A stretch of 63,757 nucleotides of DNA, filler included. It is 7 parts of 7 records of this genome, joined end to end, with 100 filler letters (N's around TTAATTAATTAA, not from the genome) between each part and the next. Parts side by side here need not be neighbours in the genome. Positions count along the whole stretch, not along the records: positions 56,847 to 63,757 come from SRR31156797_58221; 6 more parts are not named here. One strand, 5' to 3'. Both the position numbers and the translations under genes were made by a program. The notes beneath the pieces were generated by a model that was given only the letters and a program-made list of their open reading frames with translations, was not told the DNA's origin and did no database searches. This document shows positions 3,913-63,757 of the stretch, one piece after another. Within the stretch, counting starts at the first letter, position 1; each line of letters begins with the position of its first letter.

Positions 3913-4007
3913 GCAGAGTAGGTACAATGCGTCAAGTGCTGGGGAATGGGATGTTGTCTCCAGACGAAAAGCCTTTTTAGCTTGCGGTACTGTATCGCAT
4001 CCACTGT
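3913..4007 (+). ncRNA. THF (tetrahydrofolate) riboswitch
   Basis: GCAGAGTAG...GCGTCAAGTG...GAATGGGATGTTG...ACGAA...GCGGT...GCATCCACTGT follows the THF aptamer consensus; it lies directly upstream of a folate ECF S-component. Confidence 0.92.
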
Positions 4008-4110
4008 TATTTTTGATATCCTAATTTGCTGCCGAATAATGGGATTATTAGAGGATAATGCTTTGAAGCAATAACTATCTTTGGTTTACTAATAATAATT
4101 TTATTATGAG

Positions 4111-4644
4111 GTGAATATGAACAAAAAATTTAATACGAGAGACTTGGTTATTGCAAGTTTGATGATTGCACTGGCTGTAGTATTTGCCAGACTGCTTTCT
4201 TTTAAGGTATCAGAGGGGCTGCGCATTAGCTTCGGACAGACACCAATAATTATTGCTGGATTGCTTTTAGGACCTGTATGGGGACTAATTGTTGGAATAC
4301 TAGCGGATGTTACAGGATACATTATCCAGCCATTGGGTGCATATCTGCCGGGATTGACTCTATGTTCTGGACTTGTTGGACTTATCCCGGGACTAATCAG
4401 AACAAAGTTTATAAAGACAAAGATAAATTTGGCAGTAATAGTATCTGCAGTAATAGTATGTCTGATTGTAAATGGTTTATTTGCGACGTTCTTTCTGTCC
4501 CTTGCTTATTCCAGCAGAGGGTTCATGGGCTGGCTGGCGGTAAGAATGCCAGTAGAAGTTGTAATGACTTTCGTACAGTCAATAGTAATAATAGCTATTA
4601 TGGCTGTCATTTCAAAGGTTTTACACGTAAAAGTAACTGAATAA
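4111..4644 (+). CDS. folT: Folate-family ECF transporter S component
   Basis: Highly hydrophobic; LMIALAVV...RISFG..PI..AG.LLGP..G...G..AD..G pattern; THF riboswitch upstream. Confidence 0.88.
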   Translation: MNMNKKFNTRDLVIASLMIALAVVFARLLSFKVSEGLRISFGQTPIIIAGLLLGPVWGLIVGILADVTGYIIQPLGAYLPGLTLCSGLVGLIPGLIRTKFIKTKINLAVIVSAVIVCLIVNGLFATFFLSLAYSSRGFMGWLAVRMPVEVVMTFVQSIVIIAIMAVISKVLHVKVTE

Positions 4645-4651
4645 TTTTTAG

Positions 4652-5815: not shown

Positions 5816-5902
5816 CAGTAAAAGTGTAAAAATACTTAAATAATATAAAGATACAAATATTTCTATTACAATATAATTATAATATGTTATAATCCCATCA
5901 GT

Positions 5903-7270
5903 ATGAGTAAAATTATAGTGAAAAAGAATGATAAATTCGTAAAGAGACTAGTAACACTGGGGCTGCCTCTTTTGCTGCAATATTTGGTAATATCCTCTCT
6001 CAATCTGGTTGACAATGTTATGATTGGGAATTTGGGGAAAATCAGCATAAATGCAGTTGCGGTTGGCAATCAGATCTTTTTTCTAGTTAATCTGTTTATA
6101 GTGGGCGTAACAAGCGGCACAGGGATATTCTTTTCCCAATACTGGGGTAAAAGAGATATAAAGAGCATTCATAAGACACTAGGAATCGCATTGATGGTTT
6201 CAATTATTGTAGCCTCTGTTTTTACAATCCTAGCTTTATCTGTTCCAGGGCAGATAGTAGGATTGTATTCAAAGGATGCTGGAGTAATTAATGAGGGTAT
6301 TATTTACTTAAGAGTTGCTGCATTTTCGTATATTCCATTTGCAATTTCAATGGCTATGGTTTTTGCTCTTAGGTCAATTGGTAATGTTAAGCTGCCATTA
6401 ATAGTTTCAATTATTGCTCTTGGAATAAATACATTTCTTAATTACTGCTTGATTTTCGGTAATTTTGGTATGCCGGAATTAGGGGTTAAGGGTGCAGCTA
6501 TTGCGACTGTTACTGCACGCCTTGTAGAGGCAACTTTGATTGTATCAATAGTATACTTAAAGAAATATCCAATAGCAGGTAAAATGCGGGACTTATTCAG
6601 TTTTTCATCTTTTTTCTTCAAAAAAATAATGAATAAAGTAGCATTGGTAATGCTGAATGAGGGCGTATGGGCAATTGGTACTACTGGCTATAGCATAATA
6701 TATGGTCGTATGGGTGTGGATGAACTGGCTGTTATGAGTATATGCATGGCAGTATTTAATATTGGTTTTGTTTTTGCAGAGGGGGTTGGTGTTGCTACAG
6801 GAGTACTGGTAGGCAATAGCCTTGGTGCAGGTGATTTTGAACAAGCAAAATCGGATGCGAAAAAGAGCCTGCCTGCTGCGTTTATCTGCGGCATGATTGT
6901 TTCATTAATTGTTCTGTCGCTGCGAAGTACTATACTATCTTTTTATAATGTTTCTCCGGAGGTGCTTCAGCAGGCTAGCATTGTACTGATAGCAATTATC
7001 GCTTTTCTGCCACTTAACGGAATTGCTTTTACATTGTTCATCGGAGTACTAAGAGCTGGAGGCGATACTAGATTCTGCGCTATAGTTGATATGGTAGCAG
7101 TATGGTGCATAGGGCTTCCATTAGCATGGCTGGGTGCATTTGTCTTTAAGTTTCCTGTCCTTATAGTATTTATATTGGCAAGGATGGAGTCAACGGGACA
7201 TGTTGTAATGTGTTTTATCAGATACAGGTCTCTAAAATGGGTAAATGATTTGACAATTACTATGGAATAG
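5903..7270 (+). CDS. MATE family efflux transporter
   Basis: About 12 TM helices; LVDNVMIG, GVKGAAIAT and GVLRAGGDT motifs. Confidence 0.92.
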   Translation: MSKIIVKKNDKFVKRLVTLGLPLLLQYLVISSLNLVDNVMIGNLGKISINAVAVGNQIFFLVNLFIVGVTSGTGIFFSQYWGKRDIKSIHKTLGIALMVSIIVASVFTILALSVPGQIVGLYSKDAGVINEGIIYLRVAAFSYIPFAISMAMVFALRSIGNVKLPLIVSIIALGINTFLNYCLIFGNFGMPELGVKGAAIATVTARLVEATLIVSIVYLKKYPIAGKMRDLFSFSSFFFKKIMNKVALVMLNEGVWAIGTTGYSIIYGRMGVDELAVMSICMAVFNIGFVFAEGVGVATGVLVGNSLGAGDFEQAKSDAKKSLPAAFICGMIVSLIVLSLRSTILSFYNVSPEVLQQASIVLIAIIAFLPLNGIAFTLFIGVLRAGGDTRFCAIVDMVAVWCIGLPLAWLGAFVFKFPVLIVFILARMESTGHVVMCFIRYRSLKWVNDLTITME

Positions 7271-7485
7271 TTAACTAAGATAGGTTTTATTTAGATTTAA
7301 CTTGATTTAAATACCTGTTTATCTTGAATTTATAGCTTATTAACATCTGTGTGATAAAATCTACACGTACTTTGGATAAAATGTGATAGAATGTATTACA
7401 GATATTGTCACTGAATTATTCTGATATAAATAGTATAATACAAGTAGAGCAGATACAGACAATCAGCTTAAGCGAAAGGTAACAT

Positions 7486-7917
7486 ATGAAGTTAAAAACT
7501 CATTTATATATAGCGGAAACATTGCATGAGGAGTATGAAGGATACATAAACAAGTTTATTTTCAAGGTTGGCAATATACTGCCTGATTTGTGGCTCCCCC
7601 TAAGGCTCCGCTCACATTATGAGGATGGTTCAGGAGAATTTGTTAACAACCTTGTTATGGATTTAATTAATTCACCAAAGGGTATTATAGGCAGGTCGAT
7701 GCAGTTAGGAATAGTGTCTCACTTTGTGACTGACTTCTCCTGTAAGGTACATAAGCCTGATTATTTGTGTGGTACTGTGGAGCATCATAAGTATGAGAAG
7801 ATGCTGTCAGAATCTCATGAAACCGGTCATCCTGATATAGAAGAAGCAATCAATAGAGCAGATACTATTATCTATAGGGTGATTGAAGAAACTGAACCAC
7901 TGGTTACTATGGCATAG
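7486..7917 (+). CDS. Zinc-dependent phospholipase C family protein (short)
   Basis: TH..IA, GNILPD, LG..SHF.TD...H and H..YE zinc-ligand pattern. Confidence 0.7.
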   Translation: MKLKTHLYIAETLHEEYEGYINKFIFKVGNILPDLWLPLRLRSHYEDGSGEFVNNLVMDLINSPKGIIGRSMQLGIVSHFVTDFSCKVHKPDYLCGTVEHHKYEKMLSESHETGHPDIEEAINRADTIIYRVIEETEPLVTMA

Positions 7918-8023
7918 AGTATAGCTCGCAGAATTAAAATTGAAATAAGTCTAATCTAAAAAATTGATATAACAGTACATAGTGGTACATTTTGACAGCT
8001 GTGTGCTGTCTTTTTTATATTTT

Positions 8024-9025
8024 TTATTCGTACATGCTAAAGAATTCCCAAATAATTTCGCTTGCTGATATATCCATATCGTCATATTTAATAGTTGGAT
8101 ACATATGGTACATATTATCAACTGTGATGTACCATACTTGAGTATTATTATTTGGATTGCTGTAAATTGTTTTTTCTACATGCTCAGTGGGAGACGTAGT
8201 TTCTTTTTGAGTACAGCCATTAATTCCAGCCCAGAATTCTATTCCATCCCTAGCAGATGGTCCGCCGCACCAAATCTTTTCGACTGCTTCATCTCTCCCT
8301 GTTCCATCGATGTGAATGAGTTCATCTAAAACACCATGAATATGGCAAATTGGAATGGGGGTATTTACTGGATGCTCCAGCCATGTATCGGCATTGTAAT
8401 TATATGGATTGTAGCTGTACCATGTATATTCACTCATAAGTGCAGAGACTGGAGCAACAGCACGGAATACATCAGGGCGCTCACACGCCAGAGTATAGCT
8501 CATATATCCGCCGTTGGAGAATCCTGTAGCAAATATTCGGCTTTTGTTGAGTGAATATGTATCAGCTATTGAAAGTGCCAAACTAGATAGAAAACCCACA
8601 TCATCTGTCAGTGAATATATAATTCTCGAATTCCAATGAGGCTGATTGTTATAAACATCATTTGTTCCCTGAGGATAGCATACTATGAATTTATGCTCAT
8701 CAGCTACATCATTCCAAGTAGAATACAGCATGAAATCCTTAGCATTTCCAGTGTAGCCATGCATAGCAATTACCAGCGATGCATTATCGGGTAAATCAGA
8801 TGGGATGTACAGGTAGTATATTCGCTCAATATTATTGTGGGTAAATGTTTTGTAAAGAATATTAGACTGTGTGCTGCTTAAATCATTGGCAGTATCTTCT
8901 AATATATCAGTTTCATCTAGCTGATTATTATTACCATGTTGAGAAAACAATGTAAAATATATAATAAAACATAATAAAATAGCAGAAATAACTGATGTAA
9001 TTATTATTCGAGAATGATTTTTCAT
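8024..9025 (-). CDS. Secreted PHB depolymerase/LpqC-type alpha/beta-hydrolase esterase
   Basis: N-terminal TM; MHGYTG, VCYPQG, DDVGF, GFSNGG nucleophile elbow, HG..D and catalytic His region. Confidence 0.85.
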   Translation of the reverse strand: MKNHSRIIITSVISAILLCFIIYFTLFSQHGNNNQLDETDILEDTANDLSSTQSNILYKTFTHNNIERIYYLYIPSDLPDNASLVIAMHGYTGNAKDFMLYSTWNDVADEHKFIVCYPQGTNDVYNNQPHWNSRIIYSLTDDVGFLSSLALSIADTYSLNKSRIFATGFSNGGYMSYTLACERPDVFRAVAPVSALMSEYTWYSYNPYNYNADTWLEHPVNTPIPICHIHGVLDELIHIDGTGRDEAVEKIWCGGPSARDGIEFWAGINGCTQKETTSPTEHVEKTIYSNPNNNTQVWYITVDNMYHMYPTIKYDDMDISASEIIWEFFSMYE

Positions 9026-9215
9026 ACAAAAATTATACTACTTATTAATTATTCTATCAATGCATTTATCCATTAATGAATCTTAAGAATAAAATTCAGC
9101 GAAAGGTAGCTTTTTTAATGTAATAGATATGCGATGCATGTTCTTGACATCATTTTAGTATAGGGTTATCATTATCGTGGATTATGGAGCTTTTATGAAA
9201 CAAAAGCGATGCTGC

Positions 9216-9315
9216 NNNNNNNNNNNNNNNNNNNNNNNNNNNNNNNNNNNNNNNNNNNNTTAATTAATTAANNNNNNNNNNNNNNNNNNNNNNNNNNNNN
9301 NNNNNNNNNNNNNNN
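9216..9315. other. Artificial contig spacer (N run with TTAATTAATTAA)
   Basis: 100-nt N block with all-frame stop linker; GC content jumps across it. Confidence 0.98.
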
Positions 9316-33144: not shown

Positions 33145-33244
33145 NNNNNNNNNNNNNNNNNNNNNNNNNNNNNNNNNNNNNNNNNNNNTTAATTAATTAA
33201 NNNNNNNNNNNNNNNNNNNNNNNNNNNNNNNNNNNNNNNNNNNN
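33145..33244. other. Artificial contig spacer
   Basis: N run with TTAATTAATTAA. Confidence 0.98.
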
Positions 33245-40073: not shown

Positions 40074-40173
40074 NNNNNNNNNNNNNNNNNNNNNNNNNNN
40101 NNNNNNNNNNNNNNNNNTTAATTAATTAANNNNNNNNNNNNNNNNNNNNNNNNNNNNNNNNNNNNNNNNNNNN
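40074..40173. other. Artificial contig spacer
   Basis: N run with TTAATTAATTAA. Confidence 0.98.
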
Positions 40174-46154: not shown

Positions 46155-46254
46155 NNNNNNNNNNNNNNNNNNNNNNNNNNNNNNNNNNNNNNNNNNNNTT
46201 AATTAATTAANNNNNNNNNNNNNNNNNNNNNNNNNNNNNNNNNNNNNNNNNNNN
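46155..46254. other. Artificial contig spacer
   Basis: N run with TTAATTAATTAA. Confidence 0.98.
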
Positions 46255-51612: not shown

Positions 51613-51712
51613 NNNNNNNNNNNNNNNNNNNNNNNNNNNNNNNNNNNNNNNNNNNNTTAATTAATTAANNNNNNNNNNNNNNNNNNNNNNNNNNNNNNNN
51701 NNNNNNNNNNNN
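51613..51712. other. Artificial contig spacer
   Basis: N run with TTAATTAATTAA. Confidence 0.98.
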
Positions 51713-51831
51713 TAAACCGCTCCGGTCAAATTTTTTACAACAACCTTATCGCTCGGCAACCTTAGTTGTTTTACCTAAGATCTGTACTGCAAATAGGATT
51801 TAATCATTTTAAACGGACGAATACCAAACGA

Positions 51832-51847
51832 TGGCACCGGAATTGCT
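51832..51847 (+). promoter_or_regulatory. Sigma-54 (-24/-12) promoter of the methylamine operon
   Basis: TGGCAC-CGGAA-TTGCT is an exact match to TGGCAC-N5-TTGCW, oriented toward the operon. Confidence 0.85.
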
Positions 51848-51899
51848 AATTGCTGTTTCGCATTACCATTTCTGTTGCGATGAATACGACATGCGACCG

Positions 51900-52060
51900 T
51901 AGGGTTCGCGCAAGAATAAATACGTAGATTGTCAGCGTTCAGGCGCCTGCTCGGCAAGGCGTGAAAACAAGGGAATACAGGTGTATCCCGTGTTTTCGTA
52001 ACGCAGCTGAGCGGGATGAATCGACGCTGAAAATATGAAATTAATTTTGCGCGAGCCCTA
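51900..52060. mobile_element. 161-nt palindromic MITE/ERIC-like element in the operon leader
   Basis: Terminal IR TAGGGTTCGCGCAAGA / TTTTGCGCGAGCCCTA plus nested stems TCAGCGT/ACGCTGA, CCTGCTCGGC/GCTGAGCGGG, GAAAACA/TGTTTTC and GGGA.TACA/TGTATCCC. Confidence 0.65.
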
Positions 52061-52095
52061 AGTACTGAGAAGAAATAAAAATCAGGAGAAAAACG

Positions 52096-53112
52096 ATGAT
52101 GACCCCCAAAGAAAGAGTGATGGCAGTTTTCCAACATGAAAGTCCAGACCGTATTCCCTGCTTCGGGGCCAACTCCACGGTCAACTATGCCCAAATGGAA
52201 TCGGTTCAGGCTTTCTGGCCCGAAGGCCATGAAAAGGGGGACGTGATGTTCAAACAGGCCCTCGCATCTCATACGGTAGTGGGCTTCGATGCGGTCCGGG
52301 TTCCCTTTTGTCAGACGATGGAGGCTGAAGCCCTGGGTTGCAAAATTAAACCCGGAAAAGGTGTGGACGGCCTTCAAGGGATCCCCGGCATCGACCACCC
52401 GCCTCCATACAAACTGGATGACGACATTGAATTTCCGGGCGACTTTCTCGAAAGAGGCCGTATTCCCGAATTGCTCAAGGCCGTGCGCATGCTCAAGGAG
52501 GAACTCGGCGACGATGTGCCCATCGTGAGCGGGATCATCGGCCCATTCACCATTGCAGGATCCATGCTCGATTCTGTGCCCATACTCAAAGCGTCCTTGA
52601 AGAATCCGGAAAGCCTCCGCCCCTTTCTCGATGTCGCGGAAAAAGCAGGGACCACCCTTGCCAAGGCGCTCATCGAAGCCGGGGCGGATATCATCTCTTG
52701 CGAGGATATGACCGCTTCCCCCCTGATGATTGCCCCCAAAACCTACCGTGACTATGAGTTGGAGTACCAGAAGCGACAGTTTGACGCCATCGACGCGCCC
52801 AAAATCCTGCATATCTGCGGCGATGTGTCCAAAATCATCGAATGGATGGGAGAGACCGGTGCGGATGCCATCAGCCTGGAGCCGAAAACGAACCCGAAAC
52901 TGGCCAGGGAAAAATGCGGACCGGACACGATTCTCATGGGTGGTGTGGACACGGCCACGACATTGTTCATGGGATCCGTAGCTGACGTAAAAAAAGCATG
53001 TGAAGAATCCATCGCCAACGGGATCCAGATTCTCGCTCCGGGATGTGCGGTGGGACCGGGAACCCCCATGGAAAATCTGCTGGCCATGGTCGAAGTGGCT
53101 AAAAACCATTAA
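52096..53112 (+). CDS. MtaA/MtbA/CmuA-family methylcobamide:thiol methyltransferase (URO-D fold)
   Basis: PFC.T.EAEALG, GPFT.A and Zn ligands LHICG...APGC. Confidence 0.88.
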   Translation: MMTPKERVMAVFQHESPDRIPCFGANSTVNYAQMESVQAFWPEGHEKGDVMFKQALASHTVVGFDAVRVPFCQTMEAEALGCKIKPGKGVDGLQGIPGIDHPPPYKLDDDIEFPGDFLERGRIPELLKAVRMLKEELGDDVPIVSGIIGPFTIAGSMLDSVPILKASLKNPESLRPFLDVAEKAGTTLAKALIEAGADIISCEDMTASPLMIAPKTYRDYELEYQKRQFDAIDAPKILHICGDVSKIIEWMGETGADAISLEPKTNPKLAREKCGPDTILMGGVDTATTLFMGSVADVKKACEESIANGIQILAPGCAVGPGTPMENLLAMVEVAKNH

Positions 53113-53121
53113 AGGATCGTC

Positions 53122-54819
53122 ATGAGCAGATTCGGAATTGCGATCGACCTGGGTACATCCGGATTCCGGGCCCAAGCAATGGATCTCGACCGAGACACCG
53201 TTCTCGCAACGGCCGTCACGGCCCGGCATCCTCTGCCCGGTGCCAATGTGATGGACCACCTCCATTTTGCCATCGAGGCCGGAACCCAAACCGCTCACGA
53301 AGTCGTTATCCAGGCGGTCAACCGTCTCATCAAAGAGCTGGGCGTACCGGTAGACCAAATCGTCCGGCTGGCCGTTTGCGGCAACCCCATTCAGGTCTCC
53401 CTTTTTCAGGAGATCGAAATCCGAGACCTGGCCTATGCCGGTGAACGTAAGCGAAAAGCTCTGGGTATCGTCGAACCCGAAAGGAACGCCGCCATCATTC
53501 CCGCCGGAGAAATTCGCGGTCTTTTGCTTCCGGAGGATGCGGAAGTACTGATCCCGCCGGCGGTCCGGCACGAAATCGGCGCTGATGCCCTGGCCATGAT
53601 GATCAAGACCGATATCCTCCAAAAGGAAGAGCCCACCATTGTCACGGACTACGGCACCAATGCCGAAATGGCCCTGGTGGTGAACGGCACGGTCTACACC
53701 GGCTCAACAGCCGCCGGCCCTGCACTGGAAGGCCAGCAGATCTCCAACGGGATGCTGGCACTGCCCGGTGCCATCAGCGATGTAACGTTCAACGGCAATA
53801 AGCTTCAGACACAGGTGTTGGGCGAAAACATGGCCCCCCTGGAAGGCGCCGTGGTCGACCCGCAAAACGGCCGGATTTTCCGACGGGGAGGGGCGGCAAA
53901 AGGAATCACCGGGACCGGCGTTATCGCTCTGATTGCCGAAGCGATGCGAACGGACATAATCCACCTACCCAAAATCCATTGTGCGGACAACGCCTTTCAT
54001 CTTCCGGACGGCCTGGTATTTACGGAAAAGGATCTTACCGAAGCCGGTAAAGCCATCGGCGCCATTCGCGCCGGGCACATTTCCCTTTGCAAAGCCGCCG
54101 GTATCAAAATGGAAGAGATCTGTGCAGCCTACATGGCCGGCGCCTCAGGCACCTACGTGGACGCCGTCAAGGCACGGGATATCGGTCTGGTTCCCGCACT
54201 GGCGGATAAGGTCTACCAGGTGGGCAATACCTCGCTGGCCATGGCCTGCGACATGGTGAAAGAACCGGACGAACTCTGGCGTCTCGAGGCACTGTCCGAA
54301 GAGCTGCGACAGCACCACTGCATGTTCGCCACTTCGGATGCATTCGAAAAGGCCTACATTCTGGAGCTCTCCTACTGGACTGAAGGAATGCCCATGGATC
54401 AATTCCGTGTGTTTCTGCGTCAGTTCCATCTCCCGGACCTTCCGCAACCCGAAACACTGCCCGAAGTAATACGAACTTCGGCCCAGGATATCGCCGAATG
54501 GGGTGTGCGGGGGCTTTCTATCATCGACACTGTGGATGAGAAAAAAAACGCGCTGTTTGCCGGGTGCACAGCCTGCCAAGCATGCGTTGAGGAATGTCCG
54601 GAGACGGCGCTTCGCATCAAAAACACGCAGGAAAATCCACAATTCTCCCTGGATCTTTCACGATGCAACGGGCTGGCCTGTCTTCGTTGCGAGCAAGTCT
54701 GCCCGGAAAACGTATTCGACTACAAAAAAATCGTTTTACAGGGTTCTTCAACGGACACTGTGATGGTGCCGCCGCAACGGTGCGACGGCAACGTAAGCAA
54801 CTCACTTGAAAGGAGGTGA
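53122..54819 (+). CDS. ramA: Methylamine corrinoid protein reductive activase (RamA-type ASKHA ATPase, C-terminal 2x[4Fe-4S])
   Basis: DLGTSGFRAQ, RHPLPGANVMDHL, HEIGADALA, TDYGTNAEMAL, AAGPALEG; CTACQACVEECP and CNGLACLRCEQVCP. Confidence 0.9.
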   Translation: MSRFGIAIDLGTSGFRAQAMDLDRDTVLATAVTARHPLPGANVMDHLHFAIEAGTQTAHEVVIQAVNRLIKELGVPVDQIVRLAVCGNPIQVSLFQEIEIRDLAYAGERKRKALGIVEPERNAAIIPAGEIRGLLLPEDAEVLIPPAVRHEIGADALAMMIKTDILQKEEPTIVTDYGTNAEMALVVNGTVYTGSTAAGPALEGQQISNGMLALPGAISDVTFNGNKLQTQVLGENMAPLEGAVVDPQNGRIFRRGGAAKGITGTGVIALIAEAMRTDIIHLPKIHCADNAFHLPDGLVFTEKDLTEAGKAIGAIRAGHISLCKAAGIKMEEICAAYMAGASGTYVDAVKARDIGLVPALADKVYQVGNTSLAMACDMVKEPDELWRLEALSEELRQHHCMFATSDAFEKAYILELSYWTEGMPMDQFRVFLRQFHLPDLPQPETLPEVIRTSAQDIAEWGVRGLSIIDTVDEKKNALFAGCTACQACVEECPETALRIKNTQENPQFSLDLSRCNGLACLRCEQVCPENVFDYKKIVLQGSSTDTVMVPPQRCDGNVSNSLERR

Positions 54820-54823
54820 ATGG

Positions 54824-55468
54824 ATGGATAAATCAGAATGGTTTGAAAAAGCCGTGGAGAGCATCATGGCCGCGGATGAGGAAACCGCCGTGCAAGTGGC
54901 TCAAGACGCCCTCGCCGAGGGTATTGATCCGCTTGAAATGATCAACAGTGGTTTTTCCGAGGGCATTCGGAAGCTGGGCGACCTCTTCGATACAGGGCAG
55001 GTTTTTTTGCCCACCCTGATCATCGCATCCGAGGCCATGGTCAAAGCCGTGAAGATTCTGGAGGAAGCGCTTCCCCAGTCAGAACAGCCCAAGTCCATGG
55101 GAAAGGTCGTTATTGGAACCATTGAAGGCGATGTCCACGACATCGGCAAGGGCATTGTCGTTACAATGCTTAAGGTTTACGGATTCGAAGTTCACGATCT
55201 GGGAAGAGATGTGCCTGTGCAGGAATTCGTCGACAAGGTCATCGAAATCGACGCTGATTTTGTGGGCTCATCCGCCCTGATGACGACCACCCAAGCGGGG
55301 CAAAAGAAACTTGAAGAGGCCCTCGTTGAGGCTGGTATTCGTGACAAGGTAAAAACGATGGTCGGTGGCGCCGTGGCTACGCAAAGTTGGGCCGATAAAA
55401 TCGGTGCAGATATTTATGCGGAGACCGCAAGTGATGCCGTCATGAAACTCAAAGAAATGGTAAGTTGA
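54824..55468 (+). CDS. mtbC: Methylamine-specific corrinoid protein
   Basis: Cap domain plus GDVHDIGK B12 motif, SALMTTT, MVGGA; directly upstream of mtbB. Confidence 0.85.
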
Positions 55469-55482
55469 GAGGAAATGATGCA

Positions 55483-56746
55483 ATGACCAAGTATTTAACA
55501 CGACGCGGTGACGGCGCATTGATCGAAATGACGGCGGACGAACTCCGTTCGGAAATCGACGCAGGGACTGCCGATGCCGCTGAAATCGGAAAGATACCGG
55601 CACTGTCGGAAGACGATATATCCATGCTGATGGACATCTTCATGGATAAAAACCGTTTCGTCAGTGTCGAACCGGGCAATGAAGTGCCTTTGAGCCACGA
55701 CATCGGTCCATTGCGGCTCATGGGGGATCAGGGGAACAGCGGGGTCGGCATACCGCTGTCCCGGCTCCACGGAATCCAGGTGCACGAACGGGCCTTTTGT
55801 TCGGACACCATGGAACTGGGTCACATCGACTACAGTTTCAAGCCGGTCAAACCGGTGATCGCCATGGAAACCCAGGAGATGGAAAACGCCCTTCTCGCTA
55901 CGGTCCTGCCCTTGTACTACGGCGCCATGCCCAATCTGGGGACCTACTATAAGCCCGACGGACCCTTCGGGAACCCGTCGGACCTTCTCCCAATGGGAAA
56001 GGTGAAGGAAGCCTGGGAAGCGCAGGAAGAGGCTGTGACGCACGCCACACGGGACATGGTCTACATCTGCGAGGCCATGGATCAAGTGGGAGCGGACGGC
56101 ATCAACTTCGACACGACCGGTGCTGCCGGAGACACGGACTTTCTGGCAACACTCAACACAGTTGAGAAGATTAAACAAACGACCAATCTCAGCGTGGAAG
56201 TCGGCATGGCCGGTGAATTCGTTCTGGGCATGCACGGCAACCTGACCTACGATGGACAGCGTCTCGCTGGGCTGTTCTGCCATGACCAGGTCAAATTGGT
56301 AGAGAAGGCCGGGGCCGATATTTTCGGGCCGGTGGTCAACACCAAGCCAGGCAAGTCCATGCCCTGGAACCTGGCCCGGGCGGTGACCTTCGTCAAGGCC
56401 TGCGTTGAGGCTTCAACCATACCGTGTCACGTAAACATGGGAATGGGTGTCGGCGGAACGCCGGTATTCGAGACCCCGCCCATCGATTCGGTATCGAGAG
56501 CTTCGAAGGCCATGGTGGAAATCGCGAAAGTTGACGGGTTGTAGATCGGCGTGGGAGACCCCATGGGAATGCCGATCGCACACAGCGTGGCAGCGGGTAT
56601 TGGTGGAATAAGGACCGCCGGAGATCTGGTGGCCCGCATGCAAATGAACCGCAAGATGCGGATTGCAGAAGCCAAAGCCTATGTCGCAGAAAAGCTGGGT
56701 GTCACACCGGCCGACCTGTCCAATGTACATGTCATGCGCGAGGTCC
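55483..56746 (+). CDS. mtbB: Dimethylamine:corrinoid methyltransferase with pyrrolysine at TAG 56542-56544 (codon 354); 3' truncated
   Basis: MtbB motifs [40 protein letters not shown]; frame continues through TAG as [18 protein letters not shown]...[11 protein letters not shown]. Confidence 0.95.
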
Positions 56747-56846
56747 NNNNNNNNNNNNNNNNNNNNNNNNNNNNNNNNNNNNNNNNNNNNTTAATTAATT
56801 AANNNNNNNNNNNNNNNNNNNNNNNNNNNNNNNNNNNNNNNNNNNN
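56747..56846. other. Artificial contig spacer
   Basis: N run with TTAATTAATTAA. Confidence 0.98.
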
Positions 56847-56879
56847 TAATTAGCGGCAACAGATACAGAAACAAACGAC

Positions 56880-58283
56880 CTATTCACCCGGAAACACAGC
56901 CTGAAAACCGGCGAAATCGACCATGTCAACATCGGCATCCTGATCAAGATCGAAGCACTCACACCCGACAGGCATGCCAGAACCCGGTCCTGTCATGCAT
57001 TGATCGAACTGCGAATAATCCTCAACATCCACGACGCCATTACCATCGCAATCGCATCGACCTCTCTCGAATGCTCCAATATCCACAACAGAGGAAGCAT
57101 CGTAGTCGCCATCGATGATCCGCGACCTGCCGTCATTATCAGTCAGAAGATCACCAGGAACACCTTCATTCAATCCTGCATCAACGCAAGGCGAAGCAAA
57201 CTCCAGCCGGAAGTTATCATCGGATGTGCCCGCAACATCATCTTCCCCATCAGGATCAACAAACAGCGGATCGACATCAATATTGTCACCAACACCAGCG
57301 TACGCTTCGATATTATTTCCGTGGGTATAGTAATCTTTCGCGAAAATGACTTCCGAGTACATGTACACTGTATCCGGATCATTATCCCGAACAATATTGT
57401 TGGACAGCACCGGTTTCGAAAGGAAGTTCAGTACGGCACAGCTTTCGATATACGGGTTTTCCAGATTATGAATACGATTCCTCACGATCGTATTATTCGC
57501 AATAATCGGATAACTGTAAGCACAGTAGATTGCACTGCCATTACCAAAGACATGGTTATCCACAATCAGATTACCAATGATCCGGGGATTCGCATGGCGA
57601 TACAGGAAAATCGCACCACCATAATCCGCAACGTTGTTGCGGAAAACGCAATGATCGACAGTCAGTCCGGCAGTATCGATGACCGACACCGCTCCACCAC
57701 CATAGGGATAATCGCTTGCCCTGGTATCTATTGCTTTGCTGTACTCGAGAATGCACCAGGACAGACGGGAAGGCGCATTGGTCGCCTCAGTATTCTCAAA
57801 TCGAATCCCGTTCCAGCAACCACTGAGAGATGAATCGACCAAAAAATCCTGCGGTTCATCCGTGGTAAAGCGAATCCGCTCGCCAGGCGTCCCGACTGCC
57901 AGCAGCGTCCCGTCAACAGTTAGCGAATAATAGTCCTTGAACTCAACGATCGAACCAGGAGCAATGGTCAGCGTAACATCCTTCTCCACGGAAACATCCC
58001 CGACGACAAGCACCGTATCCGCATCCCATGTCGTATCTGCGGAAATACTGCCCGAGACTTCCAGAACCTCAGAACGATCCCCGAGACGACTGCGTTCAGA
58101 GAAGACCAAATGCTCTTGCGAATCAACTCTTCCAGAAGAAAACGTCTGACACCCATACCCCTCGGCCGGCGATCCCGGCTGAAGACGATAATCCCCATTG
58201 TCCGGATCCACCAGTTCCGGATCGATCCCCGTCACATTGTTAAAAGACGCCGAACCGGCGCTTGCCCAGGCAAAAGGGGCCAC
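56880..58283 (-). CDS. Right-handed beta-helix protein with C-terminal dockerin/EF-hand-like repeats; probably the C-terminal part of a read-through gene starting at 58955
   Basis: GGAV/GGAI and N.I..N repeats, DPLFVD...DFRL...SPCVDAG...DIGAFE, DCDGNGVVD and DLDQDADVD..DF; no signal peptide or RBS of its own. Confidence 0.8.
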   Translation of the reverse strand: MAPFAWASAGSASFNNVTGIDPELVDPDNGDYRLQPGSPAEGYGCQTFSSGRVDSQEHLVFSERSRLGDRSEVLEVSGSISADTTWDADTVLVVGDVSVEKDVTLTIAPGSIVEFKDYYSLTVDGTLLAVGTPGERIRFTTDEPQDFLVDSSLSGCWNGIRFENTEATNAPSRLSWCILEYSKAIDTRASDYPYGGGAVSVIDTAGLTVDHCVFRNNVADYGGAIFLYRHANPRIIGNLIVDNHVFGNGSAIYCAYSYPIIANNTIVRNRIHNLENPYIESCAVLNFLSKPVLSNNIVRDNDPDTVYMYSEVIFAKDYYTHGNNIEAYAGVGDNIDVDPLFVDPDGEDDVAGTSDDNFRLEFASPCVDAGLNEGVPGDLLTDNDGRSRIIDGDYDASSVVDIGAFERGRCDCDGNGVVDVEDYSQFDQCMTGPGSGMPVGCECFDLDQDADVDMVDFAGFQAVFPGE

Positions 58284-58955
58284 TCAGCCATAGTCGCAGA
58301 GAATCGTGAAATGCTGGACCGGATCATTGTTCTTTTCCGGATCGGAATGATACGACCAGTTCGCGAACACGTCATACCGCCCACCATCCAGGCTCAGGGC
58401 AAAGTTTACCCCGGTCGGAAGCCAATCCATCGGCTCACCGCTGAGATACTGGAAGTCATCTCCCGTATCGATTGCATCGACCACGAGATTCCGCTCAAGC
58501 ACGATACCGGAACCGCAGCCGATCAGGCGAACACCATAATCGTGTGGACGATAAAACGTCACGTTTCGGACCGATCCTTGCGGAACCTGGCCGGCTCCTT
58601 CTCCATCGTACCCACGATACCGGATATTTCCGTTCAGAATCACACAATCATCTATATCCAGTTGGCCCGTACAGTACGCAATGCAGATTTCACCACCCTG
58701 CAGATCGAGGATCGCACCGTTACCAACAATCCGGACATCTTCGTTTTTGTTCTCGAAACTCGAAGTAATCCGGTTAAACGTTCCCCCCAGCCAGAGCCCG
58801 CCGGTATAGGTTACTCCCGTCTCAAGCTCAATGTACTTATCGTATCCGGAAGCTGGAGTCGCCAGGTCATACATTTCCTTCAACGAAGTGGCATATACCT
58901 GTGGGCATGCAATGAAAGAGAACCCGAGAACAATAATGAGAACTACAAACCTCAT
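58284..58955 (-). CDS. Secreted beta-strand-rich protein ending ...ILCDYG-TGA, in frame with and abutting the next ORF
   Basis: Signal peptide MRFVVLIIVLGFSFIACPQVYA; TGA at 58286-58284 is followed by 467 open codons in the same frame. Confidence 0.75.
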   Translation of the reverse strand: MRFVVLIIVLGFSFIACPQVYATSLKEMYDLATPASGYDKYIELETGVTYTGGLWLGGTFNRITSSFENKNEDVRIVGNGAILDLQGGEICIAYCTGQLDIDDCVILNGNIRYRGYDGEGAGQVPQGSVRNVTFYRPHDYGVRLIGCGSGIVLERNLVVDAIDTGDDFQYLSGEPMDWLPTGVNFALSLDGGRYDVFANWSYHSDPEKNNDPVQHFTILCDYG

Positions 58956-59238
58956 GCGTCGGAGCTCCTGGTACCGATCTGAACCTGCTCAGGATTGGTC
59001 TTTAAGCTGATTGATTCAGTGTACCAGAACCAGATATCCCATTCAATTCGATATGCCCTCTTCCAAACGTCCGTTTTTCAGTTATCCACTTGTTTTGCAC
59101 GAAAGCCTGTACACCTTCATGCCTGACAGCGCAACAGGAATCCGAACAACAATATGCAATTTTCTGCATGCCCGGGCGTTATACACATGGAGTGACAACC
59201 GAACAGTTGTCTGGAGAAGGATTGCAGGGAGACCTCAC

Positions 59239-60255
59239 GTGTTCGTCGTAATGGAACAAGACTGCCGCGCAGATGACATAAACGCCGTTCTCGAACTGCT
59301 CCCTCGCATCGGAGCCAGGGGGAATCCCGGCTGCGAATCACTGCGATGCGTGATCGAACTGGTCGAAGTCGGACCACAGCTCGACCTGAGCTACCTCAAA
59401 CAACTGCCTGCCGTATCATGCGTGGTCGACACTCCCCAACAGGTTGCCGAAGCATGCGAATCAGAATGCAAAGACACGCTCGAAATTCCACTCGGAACAG
59501 CAACAACCGTTGGAGGCCGCCGCCTTGCCATCATCGCAGGACCCTGCAGCATCGAAGATAATGACAGGTTGCTGACCACTGCACAGTCTATCGAAGCAAG
59601 AGGCGCCGTCGCGCTGCGGGGAGGTGCGTTCAAACCGCGCACGTCTCCATTCTGTTTTCAGGGCCTGGGCGACAAAGGGCTCGAGATTCTACAGCAGGCA
59701 AAACGCGAGACAGGCCTCGCCGTCGTAACGGAAGTGATGTCGATCGAACACATTGAACGGATCGCCGCAGTCGCGGACGTCCTTCAGATCGGCTCGCGAA
59801 ACATGCACAACACGTCACTGCTGAAAGCAGTAGGCCGTCACACAACCCCGGTCCTCCTCAAACGCGGCTGGAGTGCCACGCTGGAAGAGTTCCTCGCCGC
59901 AGCCGACTACATTCGTCAGGCAGGAAATCCCCATGTGATCCTCTGCGAACGCGGTATCCGAACCTTCGAAGATTATGTACGCAACACCCTCGCCCTGGCC
60001 GTGGTCCCGGAGATCAAAAGCCGCAGCAACCTTCCCGTGATCGTGGATCCATCGCACGGAACCGGGAAAGCTCACCTCATCACCCCGATGTGCCGGGCCG
60101 CCATCGCCTGCGGAGCAGACGGCCTGATGATCGAAGTGCATCCTGACCCACAGAAAGCCTGGAGCGATGGAGAACAAACCCTGGGCCTCGATGAATTCCA
60201 GAAACTGATAAACGACATAAAACCGATTGCCGCTGCCTGTGACCGCGAACTCTGA
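59239..60255 (+). CDS. aroF: 3-deoxy-7-phosphoheptulonate (DAHP) synthase, type I-beta with N-terminal regulatory domain
   Basis: IAGPCSIE, RGGAFKPRTSP, QIGSRNM, LLKRG, LCERGIRTFE and DPSHGTG motifs; GGGAG RBS before GTG at 59239. Confidence 0.93.
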   Translation: MFVVMEQDCRADDINAVLELLPRIGARGNPGCESLRCVIELVEVGPQLDLSYLKQLPAVSCVVDTPQQVAEACESECKDTLEIPLGTATTVGGRRLAIIAGPCSIEDNDRLLTTAQSIEARGAVALRGGAFKPRTSPFCFQGLGDKGLEILQQAKRETGLAVVTEVMSIEHIERIAAVADVLQIGSRNMHNTSLLKAVGRHTTPVLLKRGWSATLEEFLAAADYIRQAGNPHVILCERGIRTFEDYVRNTLALAVVPEIKSRSNLPVIVDPSHGTGKAHLITPMCRAAIACGADGLMIEVHPDPQKAWSDGEQTLGLDEFQKLINDIKPIAAACDREL

Positions 60256-60294
60256 CCGGCCAACGTCAGCCACAGGCTCCAACAGGAGAGCATC

Positions 60295-61905
60295 GTGAAG
60301 ATACTACAGATACTACTGACACTCACCATATGTTACGGATCCGTACCAGGGCAACCTCGCCAGGAAACCCCATCCGGGGAATCAACGGAAATCGCAGCCG
60401 TCGCTAACGAGATCGACAGACTGATCCTGGATGACCTGCACAACGCCGGAATCAAACCCGCCAGGCTCTGCTCAGACGAAGTCTTCATCCGACGCGTCTA
60501 CCTGGATACCATAGGAACACTGCCAACGCCAGATGAAGTCCGCAGCTTCCTCGACGACGACAGCAGCAACAAGCGCAGCATCCTGATCGACCAACTGCTC
60601 GAACGCGAAGAGTTCGCAGACTACTGGTCTCTCAAGTGGTGCGATCTGCTTCGTGTTAAATCCGAGTACCCGATCAATCTCTGGCCCAATGCCGTCCAGG
60701 CCTACCACCGCTGGATCAGGGATTCCATCAAAACCAACAAACCATACGACCAGTTCGCCCGGCAGCTCCTGACATCCAGCGGAAGCAATTTCCGGGTTCC
60801 GCCCGTCAATTTCTATCGCGCGATGCCGGACCACGAAACATCAACGATCGCACGAACGGTCGTACTCACCTTCATGGGAGAACGAATCGAACACTGGCCA
60901 GAAGACAAACGCAGCGACCTGGAAAACCTGTTCTCACGGGTTGCTTACAAAAAAACCGCCGAATGGAAAGAAGAAATCGTCTACCCCGACCCGACTGCTT
61001 CCACGGCTCTCAATGCCAGGCTCCACAGCGGCCAGTCCGTCAAGATTCCCCCGGGGGATGATCCCCGCCGCGCATTCGCTGACTGGCTGATCGCCCCGGA
61101 CAACCCGAAATTCACACAACCAGTCGTCAATCGAATCTGGTACTGGCTGTTCGGTATCGGAATCATTCACGAACCTGATGACATCCGACCCGATAACCTG
61201 CCGATCAATCCTCAGCTGCTCGCGTACCTCCAGCAGGAACTGGTGAAATCCGAATATGACCTGAAGCACATCTATCGCCTGATCCTCAACTCAAACACGT
61301 ACCAGCGATCCAGCATCCCCGCCTCGAATAACCCCGAAGCCGAACGAAGATTCGCCAACTATTCCATCCGCCGGCTCGATGCCGAAGTCCTGATCGATGC
61401 CATCTGCAGAATCACGGACACGACCGAGTCCTACTCGAGCCTGATCCCGGAACCGTTCACCTTCATCCCGGGTGAAAACCACTCGATCGCCCTGGCCGAC
61501 GGAAGCATCACGTCACGCTTCCTCGATCTGTTCGGCCGGCCTTCACGCGACTCCGGACTCGCTGCCGAACGCCACAACAACCCGACCGACGCGCAGAAGC
61601 TCCACCTTCTGAACTCGAGTCATATAAATAACAAACTGAAAAACCTGTCGATAGAGTCAGCCAGCCGCTCCAGTGATTCAGAAAAACGAAAAACAAGACG
61701 TTCACGAAGAAACTCAGGCCGGGCAAAACTGTCACCCGAAACCGTAACGGAACTATACCTGTTGGTTCTCTCCCGTTACCCGACAGAAAACGAACTGGCC
61801 ATCATCAAGGACTACGAAAAACACGCTGAAGCCAAAGGCAAAAACGTACTGATCGACATCACCTGGGCACTGATCAACACACCGGAGTTCCTGTACCGAC
61901 ATTAA
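60295..61905 (+). CDS. DUF1549/DUF1553 domain protein (planctomycete-type)
   Basis: N.ID..I, D..FIRRVYLD.IG.LPT, N.PYDQF, VNRIW..LFG.GI, RRL.AE...DAI and WALINT.EF motifs. Confidence 0.9.
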   Translation: MKILQILLTLTICYGSVPGQPRQETPSGESTEIAAVANEIDRLILDDLHNAGIKPARLCSDEVFIRRVYLDTIGTLPTPDEVRSFLDDDSSNKRSILIDQLLEREEFADYWSLKWCDLLRVKSEYPINLWPNAVQAYHRWIRDSIKTNKPYDQFARQLLTSSGSNFRVPPVNFYRAMPDHETSTIARTVVLTFMGERIEHWPEDKRSDLENLFSRVAYKKTAEWKEEIVYPDPTASTALNARLHSGQSVKIPPGDDPRRAFADWLIAPDNPKFTQPVVNRIWYWLFGIGIIHEPDDIRPDNLPINPQLLAYLQQELVKSEYDLKHIYRLILNSNTYQRSSIPASNNPEAERRFANYSIRRLDAEVLIDAICRITDTTESYSSLIPEPFTFIPGENHSIALADGSITSRFLDLFGRPSRDSGLAAERHNNPTDAQKLHLLNSSHINNKLKNLSIESASRSSDSEKRKTRRSRRNSGRAKLSPETVTELYLLVLSRYPTENELAIIKDYEKHAEAKGKNVLIDITWALINTPEFLYRH

Positions 61906-61919
61906 CAGGAGTGTTACCA

Positions 61920-63290
61920 ATGAAAGTAAACAAACACACACCGAATCCGATGAATACGCACCTGACTCGCCGCTCCCTCCTGAAGAGCGGCCTGTACGGT
62001 GCAGCCGGAACAATACTAGGCAGCCACCTGCTCCCATCCGTCATTGCAGCAGGATCATCAGACACCCTGCCCTCCTCGACAGCCAAAGCAAAATCTGTCA
62101 TCCAGATCTGGATGTGGGGCGGCCCATCACAACTCGACACGTTCGACCCGAAACCCGATGCAGGCGATGCCTATACAGGCCCCCTGAACAATCCCATCGA
62201 AACCAACGTCAAGGGAATCCGCATCGGCGAACTGCTGCCCGAAATGGCAAAACAGGCCGACAAGTACTCCATCATCCGAAGCATGACCCACGGCGTCTTC
62301 GCTCACGAAACGGCAGCATACCTGACCCAGACCGGCCGCATGCAGGGCGGAGAAGTCATGTACCCCGCCGTCGGCGCCGTGGCATCCTGGTTCAAAGGAT
62401 ACAACACCGGCTACAAGGGCCTCATCCCCCCGTACATCGTACTGACGAAATCGCAGGGCCGATTCTCCGAAGCAGGCTTTCTGGGTCAGCGGTATATGCC
62501 GTTCGCAACAGGCGGAGACCCATCGAAGGATCCATTCGCAGTCGAAGGAATCATTTGCGAAGGCATCTCCCAGAGAAGACAGAAAGAACGACGCGAACTG
62601 CTCGGTAAACTGGACAGTCTCAGCCAGACGCTTCCCGATCATCCGGAATTCGAAAAGCTGAAGAAAAGCGAAGACAAAGCCTATGACCTGATCCTCGGCG
62701 ACGGGGCAGCCGTCTTTGACCTTTCCAAAGAGCCGGACGAACTGCGCGAACGATACGGCAAAAACAAGTTCGGACAGTCCTGCCTTGCCGCTCGCCGACT
62801 GGTCGAAAACGGCGTCCCCTTCATCACCATCAACTACGAAGGCTGGGACACCCACAAGAACCACTTCCAGACCATGCGACAGAAACTCCCGCAGATGGAC
62901 CAGGGCATCGCAACCCTTCTGCAGGATCTGTCCGATCGCGGCCTGCTCGACAGCACCATCGTCTGGTGGTCAGGCGAGTTCGGACGAACACCGAAGATCC
63001 AGTGGGAACCGCCCTACAATGGCGGACGAGGCCACTGGGGCAGCGTCTTTTCAGCTCTGCTCGCCGGCGGCGGATTCAAAGGTGGCCACGTGGTCGGCAG
63101 TTCGGACGACCGGGGTGAACACGTCAAGGACCGCCCCGTCTACCCGTGCGACCTGATCGCCAGCATCTACACACAGATGGGGATCGACCCGAACGCATAC
63201 TTCCCCCACGAATTCAGCAAAAGAATTCGCGTCACACCTTCCGCAGAAGATGGCGTAAAGATGGGCGGTCACCTTAAGGAAATCATGTAA
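61920..63290 (+). CDS. DUF1501 domain protein (Tat-exported)
   Basis: LTRRSLLK Tat motif; GGPSQLDTFDPKP, LAARRLVE.GV, GWDTH and GEFGRTP motifs. Confidence 0.92.
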   Translation: MKVNKHTPNPMNTHLTRRSLLKSGLYGAAGTILGSHLLPSVIAAGSSDTLPSSTAKAKSVIQIWMWGGPSQLDTFDPKPDAGDAYTGPLNNPIETNVKGIRIGELLPEMAKQADKYSIIRSMTHGVFAHETAAYLTQTGRMQGGEVMYPAVGAVASWFKGYNTGYKGLIPPYIVLTKSQGRFSEAGFLGQRYMPFATGGDPSKDPFAVEGIICEGISQRRQKERRELLGKLDSLSQTLPDHPEFEKLKKSEDKAYDLILGDGAAVFDLSKEPDELRERYGKNKFGQSCLAARRLVENGVPFITINYEGWDTHKNHFQTMRQKLPQMDQGIATLLQDLSDRGLLDSTIVWWSGEFGRTPKIQWEPPYNGGRGHWGSVFSALLAGGGFKGGHVVGSSDDRGEHVKDRPVYPCDLIASIYTQMGIDPNAYFPHEFSKRIRVTPSAEDGVKMGGHLKEIM

Positions 63291-63305
63291 GAAAGAAGGT
63301 TCAGC

Positions 63306-63757
63306 ATGAAACGCCAATACATACTCTCTCTGACATGGATTACATGCCTGGCAATGACACAATTAACCTTTGCTCAAGCCAGAACCCCAAACATCGGCTA
63401 CATCTATCCGGCAGGTGGCCAGCAAGGCTCGACATTCGAAGTACTTCTGGGCGGAACTCACCTGGTTGAACCCGCCACGGCCCACATCTCCGGCGGCGGC
63501 GTGGAAGTGGAAATCATCGAATACATCAAACCTCCCAACCAGGGTGCCTTCAAGGAAATGCAGAACAAGATGGGCGAACTGTTGAAGAAAAAGAGAGCAG
63601 CCGCCCCCGAAGGATGGCGTCCAGGGCGAAGAGCAGCACTGGAAACGTTTTCCAACGAAAACTGGACCGAAGAAAACGAAGCCGAATTCACCGAACTCAG
63701 GCGAAAACTGGCGATGTTTAAACTCAGGCGAACCTCTGCCCCAGCCCTGGCCGAAAC
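63306..63757 (+). CDS. Secreted PPC-domain/peptidase-like partner of DUF1501 clusters (3' truncated)
   Basis: Manual translation: signal peptide then PNIGYIYPAGGQQGSTFEVLLGG; open to window end. Confidence 0.7.
   Translation, partial: MKRQYILSLTWITCLAMTQLTFAQARTPNIGYIYPAGGQQGSTFEVLLGGTHLVEPATAHISGGGVEVEIIEYIKPPNQGAFKEMQNKMGELLKKKRAAAPEGWRPGRRAALETFSNENWTEENEAEFTELRRKLAMFKLRRTSAPALAE

Follow-up and report, generated by a model that had tools for sequence, protein, structure and literature searches.

We analyzed a gene on the minus strand of a 63,757-nucleotide stretch of DNA made of seven pieces joined end to end (hereafter the window), in which a long reading frame at 58955..56880 is interrupted by an in-frame TGA. 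Comparison with homologs indicated that this is very probably one gene, in which the UGA at codon 224 is decoded as selenocysteine (Sec). The predicted product is a secreted protein built of two beta-helix modules. The comparative data support the two-module family, together with a smaller sister family, as a new selenoprotein family that is widespread, previously unannotated, and unusual in its predicted fold and location.

A single reading frame interrupted by one TGA

On the minus strand, 58955..56880 reads as a single frame of 691 codons followed by a terminal TAG (56880-56882), the sole interruption being a TGA at 58284-58286 (codon 224). The letters across the junction are ATT CTC TGC GAC TAT GGC TGA GTG GCC CCT TTT, which gives the motif C-D-Y-G-TGA. 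Two open reading frames (ORFs) abut here in the same frame with zero gap, 58955..58284 (223 amino acids, ending at the TGA) and 58283..56880 (467 amino acids), and the start called for the latter is the GTG immediately 3' of the TGA. Cys220 lies four residues ahead of the TGA, and a second conserved cysteine, in EGYGC269QTF, lies 45 residues past it. An earlier note, made by a model from the letters of the window, had described this arrangement: the junction letters with the two zero-gap ORFs, the 691-codon frame with a single in-frame UGA at codon 224, a Cys four residues before the UGA and a YG-C motif about 45 amino acids later. All of this was recovered when the sequence was read again, from the ORF listing and from the read-through translation. 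The note had also placed a signal peptide on the upstream part only and had seen no Shine-Dalgarno sequence for the downstream part. Inspection agrees with it: by eye, a leader resembling a signal peptide is present at the N-terminus (MRFVVLIIVLGFSFIACPQVYA/TSLKE) and absent from the downstream part, and no GGAGG-like stretch was seen by eye before the GTG that follows the TGA.

The gene is the first on piece 56847-63757, which is a contig of its own. A 279-nt contig from a public run spans 58240-58518 with 0 differences; it probably comes from the same sample and is hence not independent. Depth in the single public run containing the TGA stretch is low (2.5-5).

The in-frame TGA is conserved in homologs from several phyla

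To place this codon in an evolutionary context, it was read in 77 homologous loci, comprising 23 from genome contigs, 40 from metagenomes and 14 fetched from Cloacimonadota (one of these, L081, lies on the same contig as L020). Results showed TGA in 76 loci and TGC (Cys) in one, across Planctomycetota, Cloacimonadota, Eisenbacteria, Acidobacteriota and metagenomes. Neither TAA nor TAG was found at this column in any of the 77 loci, invariant columns are present on both sides of the TGA, and the upstream and downstream parts are linked in one frame throughout. The sole exception carries Cys and not Trp, Arg or Gly. With TGA kept in 76 of 77 loci, the TGA of the window is therefore not a private accident.

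The scan of genome contigs returned 24 loci from metagenome-assembled genomes (MAGs) labelled Planctomycetota (Planctomycetales, Planctomycetaceae, Phycisphaerae), Candidatus Eisenbacteria, Candidatus Cloacimonadota, Acidobacteriota and unclassified bacteria. All 23 that reach the junction have an in-frame TGA in the same column, within the motif [LVI]-C-[DE]-[YF]-[GA]-TGA; L025 starts downstream of the junction and is thus outside this count. The metagenome scan returned 52 loci, with TGA at the junction in 40 of the 40 family members that reach it, the remaining 12 either ending before the junction or belonging to the sister family. Among sampled genomes, the two-module family was detected in 3 of 401 Planctomycetota, with one TGA in each, and in 43 of 201 Cloacimonadota, so it is not a curiosity. 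The 43 junction-covering Cloacimonadota matches have one TGA (36), two TGA (5), TGA and TAA (1) or no stop (1), and the fetched loci from this phylum (L079, L081, L083-L094) have TGA in 13 cases and TGC in one (L083).

Two observations on individual loci can be added. The Cloacimonadota genome that contains L020 (G811) carries two paralogs of the family, at C181:52355-54472 and C135:3-1544, with one in-frame TGA each. At L021:429-2726, the last third of the gene translates to an Arg-rich, nonsense-like sequence, which points to a frameshift or a misassembly in this MAG.

The consequences of the TGA for annotation are visible in protein databases. A search with the fused sequence gave 123 matches, nearly all limited to the C-terminal two thirds, and many of the 16 matches that were fetched start a few residues past the TGA column. 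In an exhaustive search, residue 1 of P0027, P0161, P0166 and P0221 coincided with query residue 225, while P0172 (229 amino acids) ended at query residue 223. Database entries for the family are almost all half-proteins of this kind, and hundreds of genes are therefore mis-called.

Cysteine and TGA exchange at both positions of the motif

The single locus with TGC, L083, reads L-C-E-Y-G-C (TGT, TGC) and is a true Cys form. It is identical to the database protein P0123, and NCBI proteins labelled Candidatus Cloacimonadota belong to the cluster of P0123. Of the 63 loci in which the first motif column could be read, 49 have TGC or TGT and 14 have TGA, the latter giving U-x-x-x-U (U, Sec). In a maximum-likelihood tree built from 58 rows after masking of the motif columns, Cys and TGA changed into one another at this first column at least six times, five of these changes being forced by well-supported branches, and sister pairs can differ in their state (for example L033/L044 and L039/L040). 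The window gene falls together with L031, a Cys form to which it is 67% identical, and with L034, which has U-x-x-x-U. At both motif columns, the only sense codons found are Cys codons, never TGG.

A similar exchange was observed in the smaller sister family. Loci L073-L078 encode predicted secreted proteins with a single module (~260-280 amino acids) that share the N-terminal motif of the two-module family. Fourteen sister-family database proteins end exactly at ...D-C-G, and four sister-family loci read D-C-G-TGA with conserved sequence beyond. Seven full-length sister proteins have Cys at the Sec column (DLSC, DWGC twice, DCGC twice and DYYC twice). Since Sec and Cys are swapped at the same column here, the Sec site is older than the two-module architecture. 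A Cys two residues before Sec is present in all sister Sec forms (14 proteins and 4 loci) and in 2 of the 7 Cys forms, a distribution that fits a resolving or protecting thiol for Sec and not a fixed pair of metal ligands. One contig, L077, carries both a Cys form and a Sec form, and a second copy of the sister gene lies downstream in L074 and L075.

A covarying hairpin lies just 3' of the UGA

In the window, the RNA can form the hairpin GCGCCG-GUU-CGGCGU, with the stem starting 23 nt and the loop 29 nt past the TGA; its free energy is -8.1 kcal/mol and it is included in the minimum-free-energy fold. In the high-GC clade, to which the window belongs, the helix corresponds to alignment columns 25-31 paired with 35-41. 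Among 51 sequences of the same length, 73% of the cells in this helix are paired, compared with 38-50% when the partner strand is slid along the alignment, and the covariation score is 0.107 versus 0.050±0.013, with 0 of 500 shuffles reaching 0.107. The pair 27:39, made of two third codon positions, illustrates this exchange: CG in 13 sequences, GC in 10, AU in 4, GU in 2, UA in 2, UG in 2, and unpaired in 16. A set of 24 sequences gave the same helix pattern as the set of 51.

In the low-GC clade, RNAalifold proposed a 6-bp stem (columns 16-21 with 27-32) closed by an AGUUG loop. Here 95.2% of the cells are paired, versus 17-51% for slid helices; the covariation score of 0.412 (versus 0.196±0.036) was reached in 0 of 500 shuffles, and compensatory changes occur at pairs 16:32 and 17:31. 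A predicted stem-loop resembling a selenocysteine insertion sequence (SECIS) is thus kept 3' of the UGA by compensatory changes. An extra hairpin for the second UGA of U-x-x-x-U genes was also considered and rejected, stability showing no difference in the comparison of 14 with 47 genes (near, p = 0.65; far, p = 0.85).

Stop codon usage and the selenocysteine machinery of host genomes

TGA is the terminal stop in 25 of 45 complete family genes, and the neighboring DAHP synthase gene (59011-60255) also ends in TGA. Of 64 genes, 8 carry ATG, GTG or TTG immediately 3' of the internal TGA, and in 23 the next 39 codons contain none of the three. TGA otherwise acting as a stop, and a restart not being conserved, speak against reassignment of the genetic code as well as against a coupled pair of genes.

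The machinery for Sec insertion was sought in the host genomes of the homologs, and the counts refer to these and not to the gene's own organism. The tRNA-Sec was found above 69 bits in 4 of 4 genomes, the winged-helix domain of SelB in 9 of 9, SelA in 5 of 6 (the exception, in which none was found, being the Eisenbacteria MAG G809) and SelD in all 5 of the 5 examined. Each of the five selD genes (in G002, G003, G004, G809 and G811) has its own in-frame TGA and serves as an internal positive control, SelD itself being, as read from these frames, a selenoprotein in these hosts. G809 also holds an extra selD copy that has no internal stop.

Architecture of the predicted protein

Of the extracellular domains that the earlier note had assigned to the downstream part, the beta-helix stood, with Pfam Beta_helix PF13229 matching residues 375-534 at 37.7 bits (gathering cut-off 25.9), while the dockerin assignment stayed below its cut-off (Dockerin_1 PF00404, residues 635-682, 18.9-19.5 bits versus 22.9); two Asp-rich repeats can be seen by eye in the C-terminal region. 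A choice-of-anchor Q domain (NCBIfam NF041518, residues 580-631) scored 26.4 bits against a cut-off of 25, and NosD PF05048 came slightly under its cut-off of 23.6 (22.2 bits with the fused protein, 23.0 with the downstream ORF). The models PF13229, PF05048 and NF041518 cover only the part after the Sec site and not module 1, and no Pfam or NCBIfam family matched the first 223 residues. The mature N-terminus, T-S-L-K-E-M-Y-D, is conserved, homologs having by eye a hydrophobic leader followed by [ST]L[KR]E.Y. Their tails vary and include type IX secretion system (T9SS) sorting domains, FlgD-Ig domains, dockerin-like repeats and others.

An AlphaFold2 model of the full-length protein, computed from a 28-row alignment of read-through translations, had a mean predicted local distance difference test (pLDDT) score of 85.7 and a predicted template modelling (pTM) score of 0.86. 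It shows two beta-helix modules connected by a disordered linker (residues 276-291), with the motif right behind the last strand of module 1. In the family alignment, His215, Cys220 (or Sec), Sec224 and Cys269 are invariant, and it is possible that Cys269 is a third member of a Cys/Sec centre. A Foldseek search of the Protein Data Bank found only generic beta-helix proteins, including phage tailspikes, with TM-scores of at most 0.27. A model of a single-module relative was too poor to be used (pLDDT 47.9).

Proposed function and points that weigh against it

We propose that tRNA-Sec and SelB, directed by the hairpin just 3' of the UGA, would insert Sec at codon 224 in the way usual for bacteria, and that the N-terminal signal peptide would export a product in which two right-handed beta-helix modules are followed by a variable tail for surface anchoring. 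The selenoprotein family would be defined by [Cys/Sec]-x-x-x-Sec, located where the first module ends. The earlier note had proposed one gene with either Sec or regulated read-through; the Sec part is supported by the TGA in 76 of 77 loci, the Cys exception, the constant linkage of the two parts in frame and the machinery in hosts of homologs, and regulated read-through is not favored.

More tentatively, Sec could be the reactive residue of an extracellular redox centre, forming a selenenylsulfide with Cys220, or a diselenide in U-x-x-x-U forms. This proposal is made because Sec is so rarely replaced by Cys (1 of 77), because a vicinal Cys or Sec always stands beside it but can be dispensed with in Cys forms, and because the predicted tails are surface anchors. 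Such a centre would act on a substrate held along the groove of the beta-helix, probably a polymer, an insoluble compound or one that contains sulfur. It is more doubtful, though conceivable, that the family represents the first extracellular "seleno-beta-helix" enzyme class, performing at the cell surface a selenenylsulfide or diselenide chemistry that Cys cannot sustain outside the cell. If so, reductive or nucleophilic attack could be directed at targets such as polysulfide or elemental sulfur, metalloids or modified glycans. This would also explain why Cys is rare (1 of 77) in anaerobes such as Cloacimonadota and sediment Planctomycetota, and one SECIS hairpin would serve both UGA codons 12 nt apart.

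Several observations weigh against the overall interpretation of one Sec-decoded gene and its proposed function. For the hairpin, the fold of the 66-nt region in the window is no better than that of shuffled sequences (z = +0.96; 172 of 200 at least as good), no useful consensus emerged from RNAalifold when 24 sequences of mixed origin were aligned, the distance from hairpin to UGA differs among clades, no Rfam family matched at 58150-58350, and the lowering of synonymous variation in the 16 codons past the TGA is not significant (p = 0.10 and 0.43), although individual codons do not vary (GTC and AGT in all 21 low-GC rows, GCC in all 44 high-GC rows). For the machinery, SelA is above cut-off in 298 of 401 Planctomycetota genomes; with such a high background, its presence in hosts is consistent with Sec and discriminates little. 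For the host, the window that holds the gene is a chain of at least seven contigs, and the nearest genome, G001, matches neither of the contigs compared with it and lacks the family. For the function, no relative of module 1 with a solved structure turned up in a profile search of Protein Data Bank sequences, no conserved neighbor genes were found (one cluster recurs, in 3 closely related loci), and the functional part of the proposal follows from motif logic.

The main alternative concerns the role of Sec and not its insertion. The [Cys/Sec]-x-x-x-Sec motif, perhaps with His215 and Cys269, could bind a soft metal (for example Cu, Ni, Hg or Fe) instead of acting as a redox pair, while still being decoded as Sec, which we regard as unlikely. 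The protein would then be, with the same low likelihood, an extracellular metal-binding or metal-delivering protein or a metallo-enzyme. In formate dehydrogenases and [NiFeSe] hydrogenases a metal is coordinated by Sec, the invariant His215, Cys220/Sec, Sec224 and Cys269 could provide up to four ligands, and a weak NosD-like signal is present (PF05048, 22.2-23.0 bits versus 23.6). However, this match is below its cut-off and lies within module 2, away from the Sec site, and a partner Cys that occurs in all single-module Sec forms but in 2 of 7 Cys forms would be odd for an obligatory ligand.

Other readings of the in-frame UGA

Decoding of the UGA as Sec was also weighed against insertion of another amino acid, either Trp through read-through by a near-cognate tRNA or Cys through a Cys-accepting, UGA-reading tRNA. 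Sequence alone looks the same for Sec and for Cys insertion at UGA, and two full-length database proteins, P0014 and P0028, have W at both motif columns (LWEHGW and LWEYGW). The DNA behind these two proteins was sought and not found: a metagenome scan with P0028 alone gave 0 matches, and no near-identical locus turned up. Because their low-GC relatives carry TGA at both columns, we infer that the W...W of P0014 and P0028 results from gene calls made under genetic code 4, probably on low-GC contigs; if this is the case, public protein sets contain selenoproteins disguised as Trp proteins. Cys codons as the sole sense codons at both columns, with TGG never found, a covarying hairpin that simple read-through would not need, and hosts that carry SelA, SelB, SelD and tRNA-Sec also make such recoding very improbable.

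Even less probable is a true split gene, with termination at the TGA and synthesis of a second protein from the adjacent GTG by translational coupling. The GTG stands directly 3' of the TGA in the window, and gene callers predict two ORFs almost everywhere in the family. Against this, only 8 of 64 genes have a start codon right behind the TGA and 23 of 64 lack one within 39 codons, the frame is always kept with no TAA or TAG at the column in any of the 77 loci, and the downstream part lacks a signal peptide despite its extracellular domains. In the 14 loci with a second TGA four codons upstream, that codon would make no sense as a stop. Finally, the TGA might be a lesion in a pseudogene, a nonsense mutation private to the window gene or an error of assembly, for which the low depth of the public run (2.5-5) could speak. 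This is refuted by the homologs, which span several phyla and have TGA with both flanks conserved in 76 of 77 loci, and a separate contig, probably from the same sample, is identical at the TGA; we give this reading practically no weight.

Relation to known selenoproteins and beta-helix proteins

With Sec at codon 224, the closest parallels are bacterial selenoproteins that use a UGA and a SECIS hairpin 3' of it, such as formate dehydrogenase alpha (fdhF/FdhA), which likewise have a conserved in-frame UGA, homologs in which Cys replaces Sec, selA/selB/selC/selD in the hosts (for the new family, in hosts of homologs), and a hairpin with a G/U-containing loop that starts ~13-23 nt past the UGA. 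Some FdhA enzymes also act outside the cytoplasm. The new family differs in its predicted right-handed beta-helix, which has neither an oxidoreductase or thioredoxin-like fold nor a Mo/W cofactor domain, in its predicted Sec-type signal peptide export and surface-anchor tails, in the rarity of Cys in place of selenocysteine (1 of 77 two-module loci), and in allowing a spacing of 12 nt between two Sec codons. Selenoprotein L contains a UxxU motif in a thioredoxin-like fold, with a eukaryotic SECIS in the 3'-UTR (untranslated region). It resembles the new family in having two nearby Sec residues, a possible diselenide, and Cys/Sec variants at one position. In contrast, the new family would have U-x-x-x-U, a beta-helix, a hairpin in a bacterial coding region and an extracellular location.

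Among beta-helix proteins, Rhombotarget A (9cdv), the PL6 alginate lyases (7dmk, 7o7t), the lacto-N-biosidase LnbX (5gqc) and the pectate lyase Pel9A (1ru4) are also secreted and right-handed, and some PL6 lyases have two beta-helix domains per chain. The likeness is limited to the fold (Foldseek E-values of 9e-6 to 7e-3, TM-scores of at most 0.27, identity of 10-14%). To our knowledge, none of these proteins is a selenoprotein.

The earlier note knew of no selenoprotein family with a secreted beta-helix architecture, and none was found in the portions of the literature covered. Full-text searches for selenoprotein or selenocysteine with (parallel) beta-helix, for selenoprotein with Planctomycetes, and for CXXXU/UXXXU gave no relevant report in the texts covered; the family could already stand as "hypothetical protein" in supplementary family lists. 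The sections covered of two reviews (PMC13188914, from 2026, and PMC9312934, from 2022) and of the deep-Sep (PMC12013277) and BSepDB (PMC13326102) papers mention no helix, Planctomycetes, secreted or signal-peptide selenoprotein, while planctomycete selenoproteins such as fdhA and fmdB appear in the part covered of PMC4807772. According to the corresponding part of the deep-Sep paper (PMC12013277), selenoprotein finders depend on abundant Cys homologs; the very rare replacement of Sec by Cys in this family would explain why they may have missed it.

The family would move Sec from its usual cytoplasmic or periplasmic oxidoreductase folds to a secreted, surface-anchored beta-helix. The C/U-x-x-x-U motif would be a naturally occurring example of two Sec codons spaced by 12 nt, with a possible extracellular diselenide.

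Genomic context and other features of the window

Table 1. Coordinates of the gene, its parts, related loci and other features of the window (positions without a locus or genome prefix refer to the window).
Feature	Location	Strand	Basis or remark
One gene, predicted secreted two-module beta-helix selenoprotein	56880..58955	-	Frame reading; full-length AlphaFold2 model
Predicted signal peptide, residues 1-22 (MRFVVLIIVLGFSFIACPQVYA)	58890..58955	-	By eye
Predicted beta-helix module 1, residues ~23-275, Sec site near C-terminal cap	58131..58889	-	Strand pattern, pLDDT 85-98
Cys220 codon TGC, partner position	58296..58298	-	TGA here in 14/63 related loci
TGA codon 224, very probably read as selenocysteine	58284..58286	-	TGA in 76/77 loci, TGC in one
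SECIS-like hairpin (predicted)	58247..58261	-	Folding; covariation across 51 sequences
Cys269 codon in invariant G-Y-G-C-Q-T-F	58149..58151	-	Invariant column in both alignments (A2, A5)
Linker, residues 276-291, variable, disordered in model	58083..58130	-	pLDDT <50; length and sequence vary in alignment
Beta-helix module 2, residues ~295-560	57276..58073	-	Pfam Beta_helix PF13229; strands 295-523 in model
Choice-of-anchor Q domain, residues 580-631	57063..57218	-	NCBIfam NF041518
Dockerin-like C-terminal repeats, residues 635-682	56910..57053	-	Pfam Dockerin_1, under cut-off
Artificial contig joint (N run, TTAATTAATTAA, N run)	56747..56846	.	Adjoins contig carrying the gene
Artificial joints, all	9216-9315, 33145-33244, 40074-40173, 46155-46254, 51613-51712, 56747-56846		
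PSCyt2/PSD1 (DUF1549/DUF1553) gene, then DUF1501 gene	60295-63290	+	
Methylamine set: RACo-like activase	53122-54819	+	
Methylamine set: corrinoid B12-binding protein	54806-55468	+	
Dimethylamine methyltransferase	within 53122-56746	+	Dimeth_Pyl, 569.6 bits; cut by contig end
selD with in-frame TGA	G002:C1:106186-107121; G003:C5:122644-123585; G004:C42:2210-3136		
selD with in-frame TGA	G809:C6:54567-55487; G811:C171:34389-35315		
Sister-family examples	L075:1471-2253; L074:745-1548; L077:830-1672		

The sequence TTAATTAATTAA flanked by N runs occurs six times in the window, versus none expected, and separates seven pieces with a G+C content of 0.36-0.56. The first piece (1-9215) has a G+C content of 0.36, compared with 0.52-0.56 elsewhere, and its tetranucleotide make-up is uncorrelated with that of the other pieces; the window "genome" is therefore mixed.

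Besides the gene studied here, piece 56847-63757 has DAHP synthase, PSCyt2/PSD1 and DUF1501 genes. The pair of PSCyt2/PSD1 and DUF1501 genes is typical of Planctomycetota and suggests the phylum of this contig, which is probably from a planctomycete. Genome G001 was considered as a stand-in host and rejected: it shows only a weak beta-helix match, and its DNA matches neither 58956-63757 nor 51713-56746, the latter being the contig with the methylamine set. In the phylum of G001, the family was found in 0 of 401 genomes searched (G001 included). Having neither a DNA match nor the family, G001 is therefore uninformative on the host of the gene.

The methylamine set lies on the plus strand of the contig that precedes the gene's contig in the window (Table 1). 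Its dimethylamine methyltransferase gene (Dimeth_Pyl) contains an in-frame TAG at 56542-56544 (VDGL-TAG-IGVGDP), which we take to be the classical pyrrolysine position.

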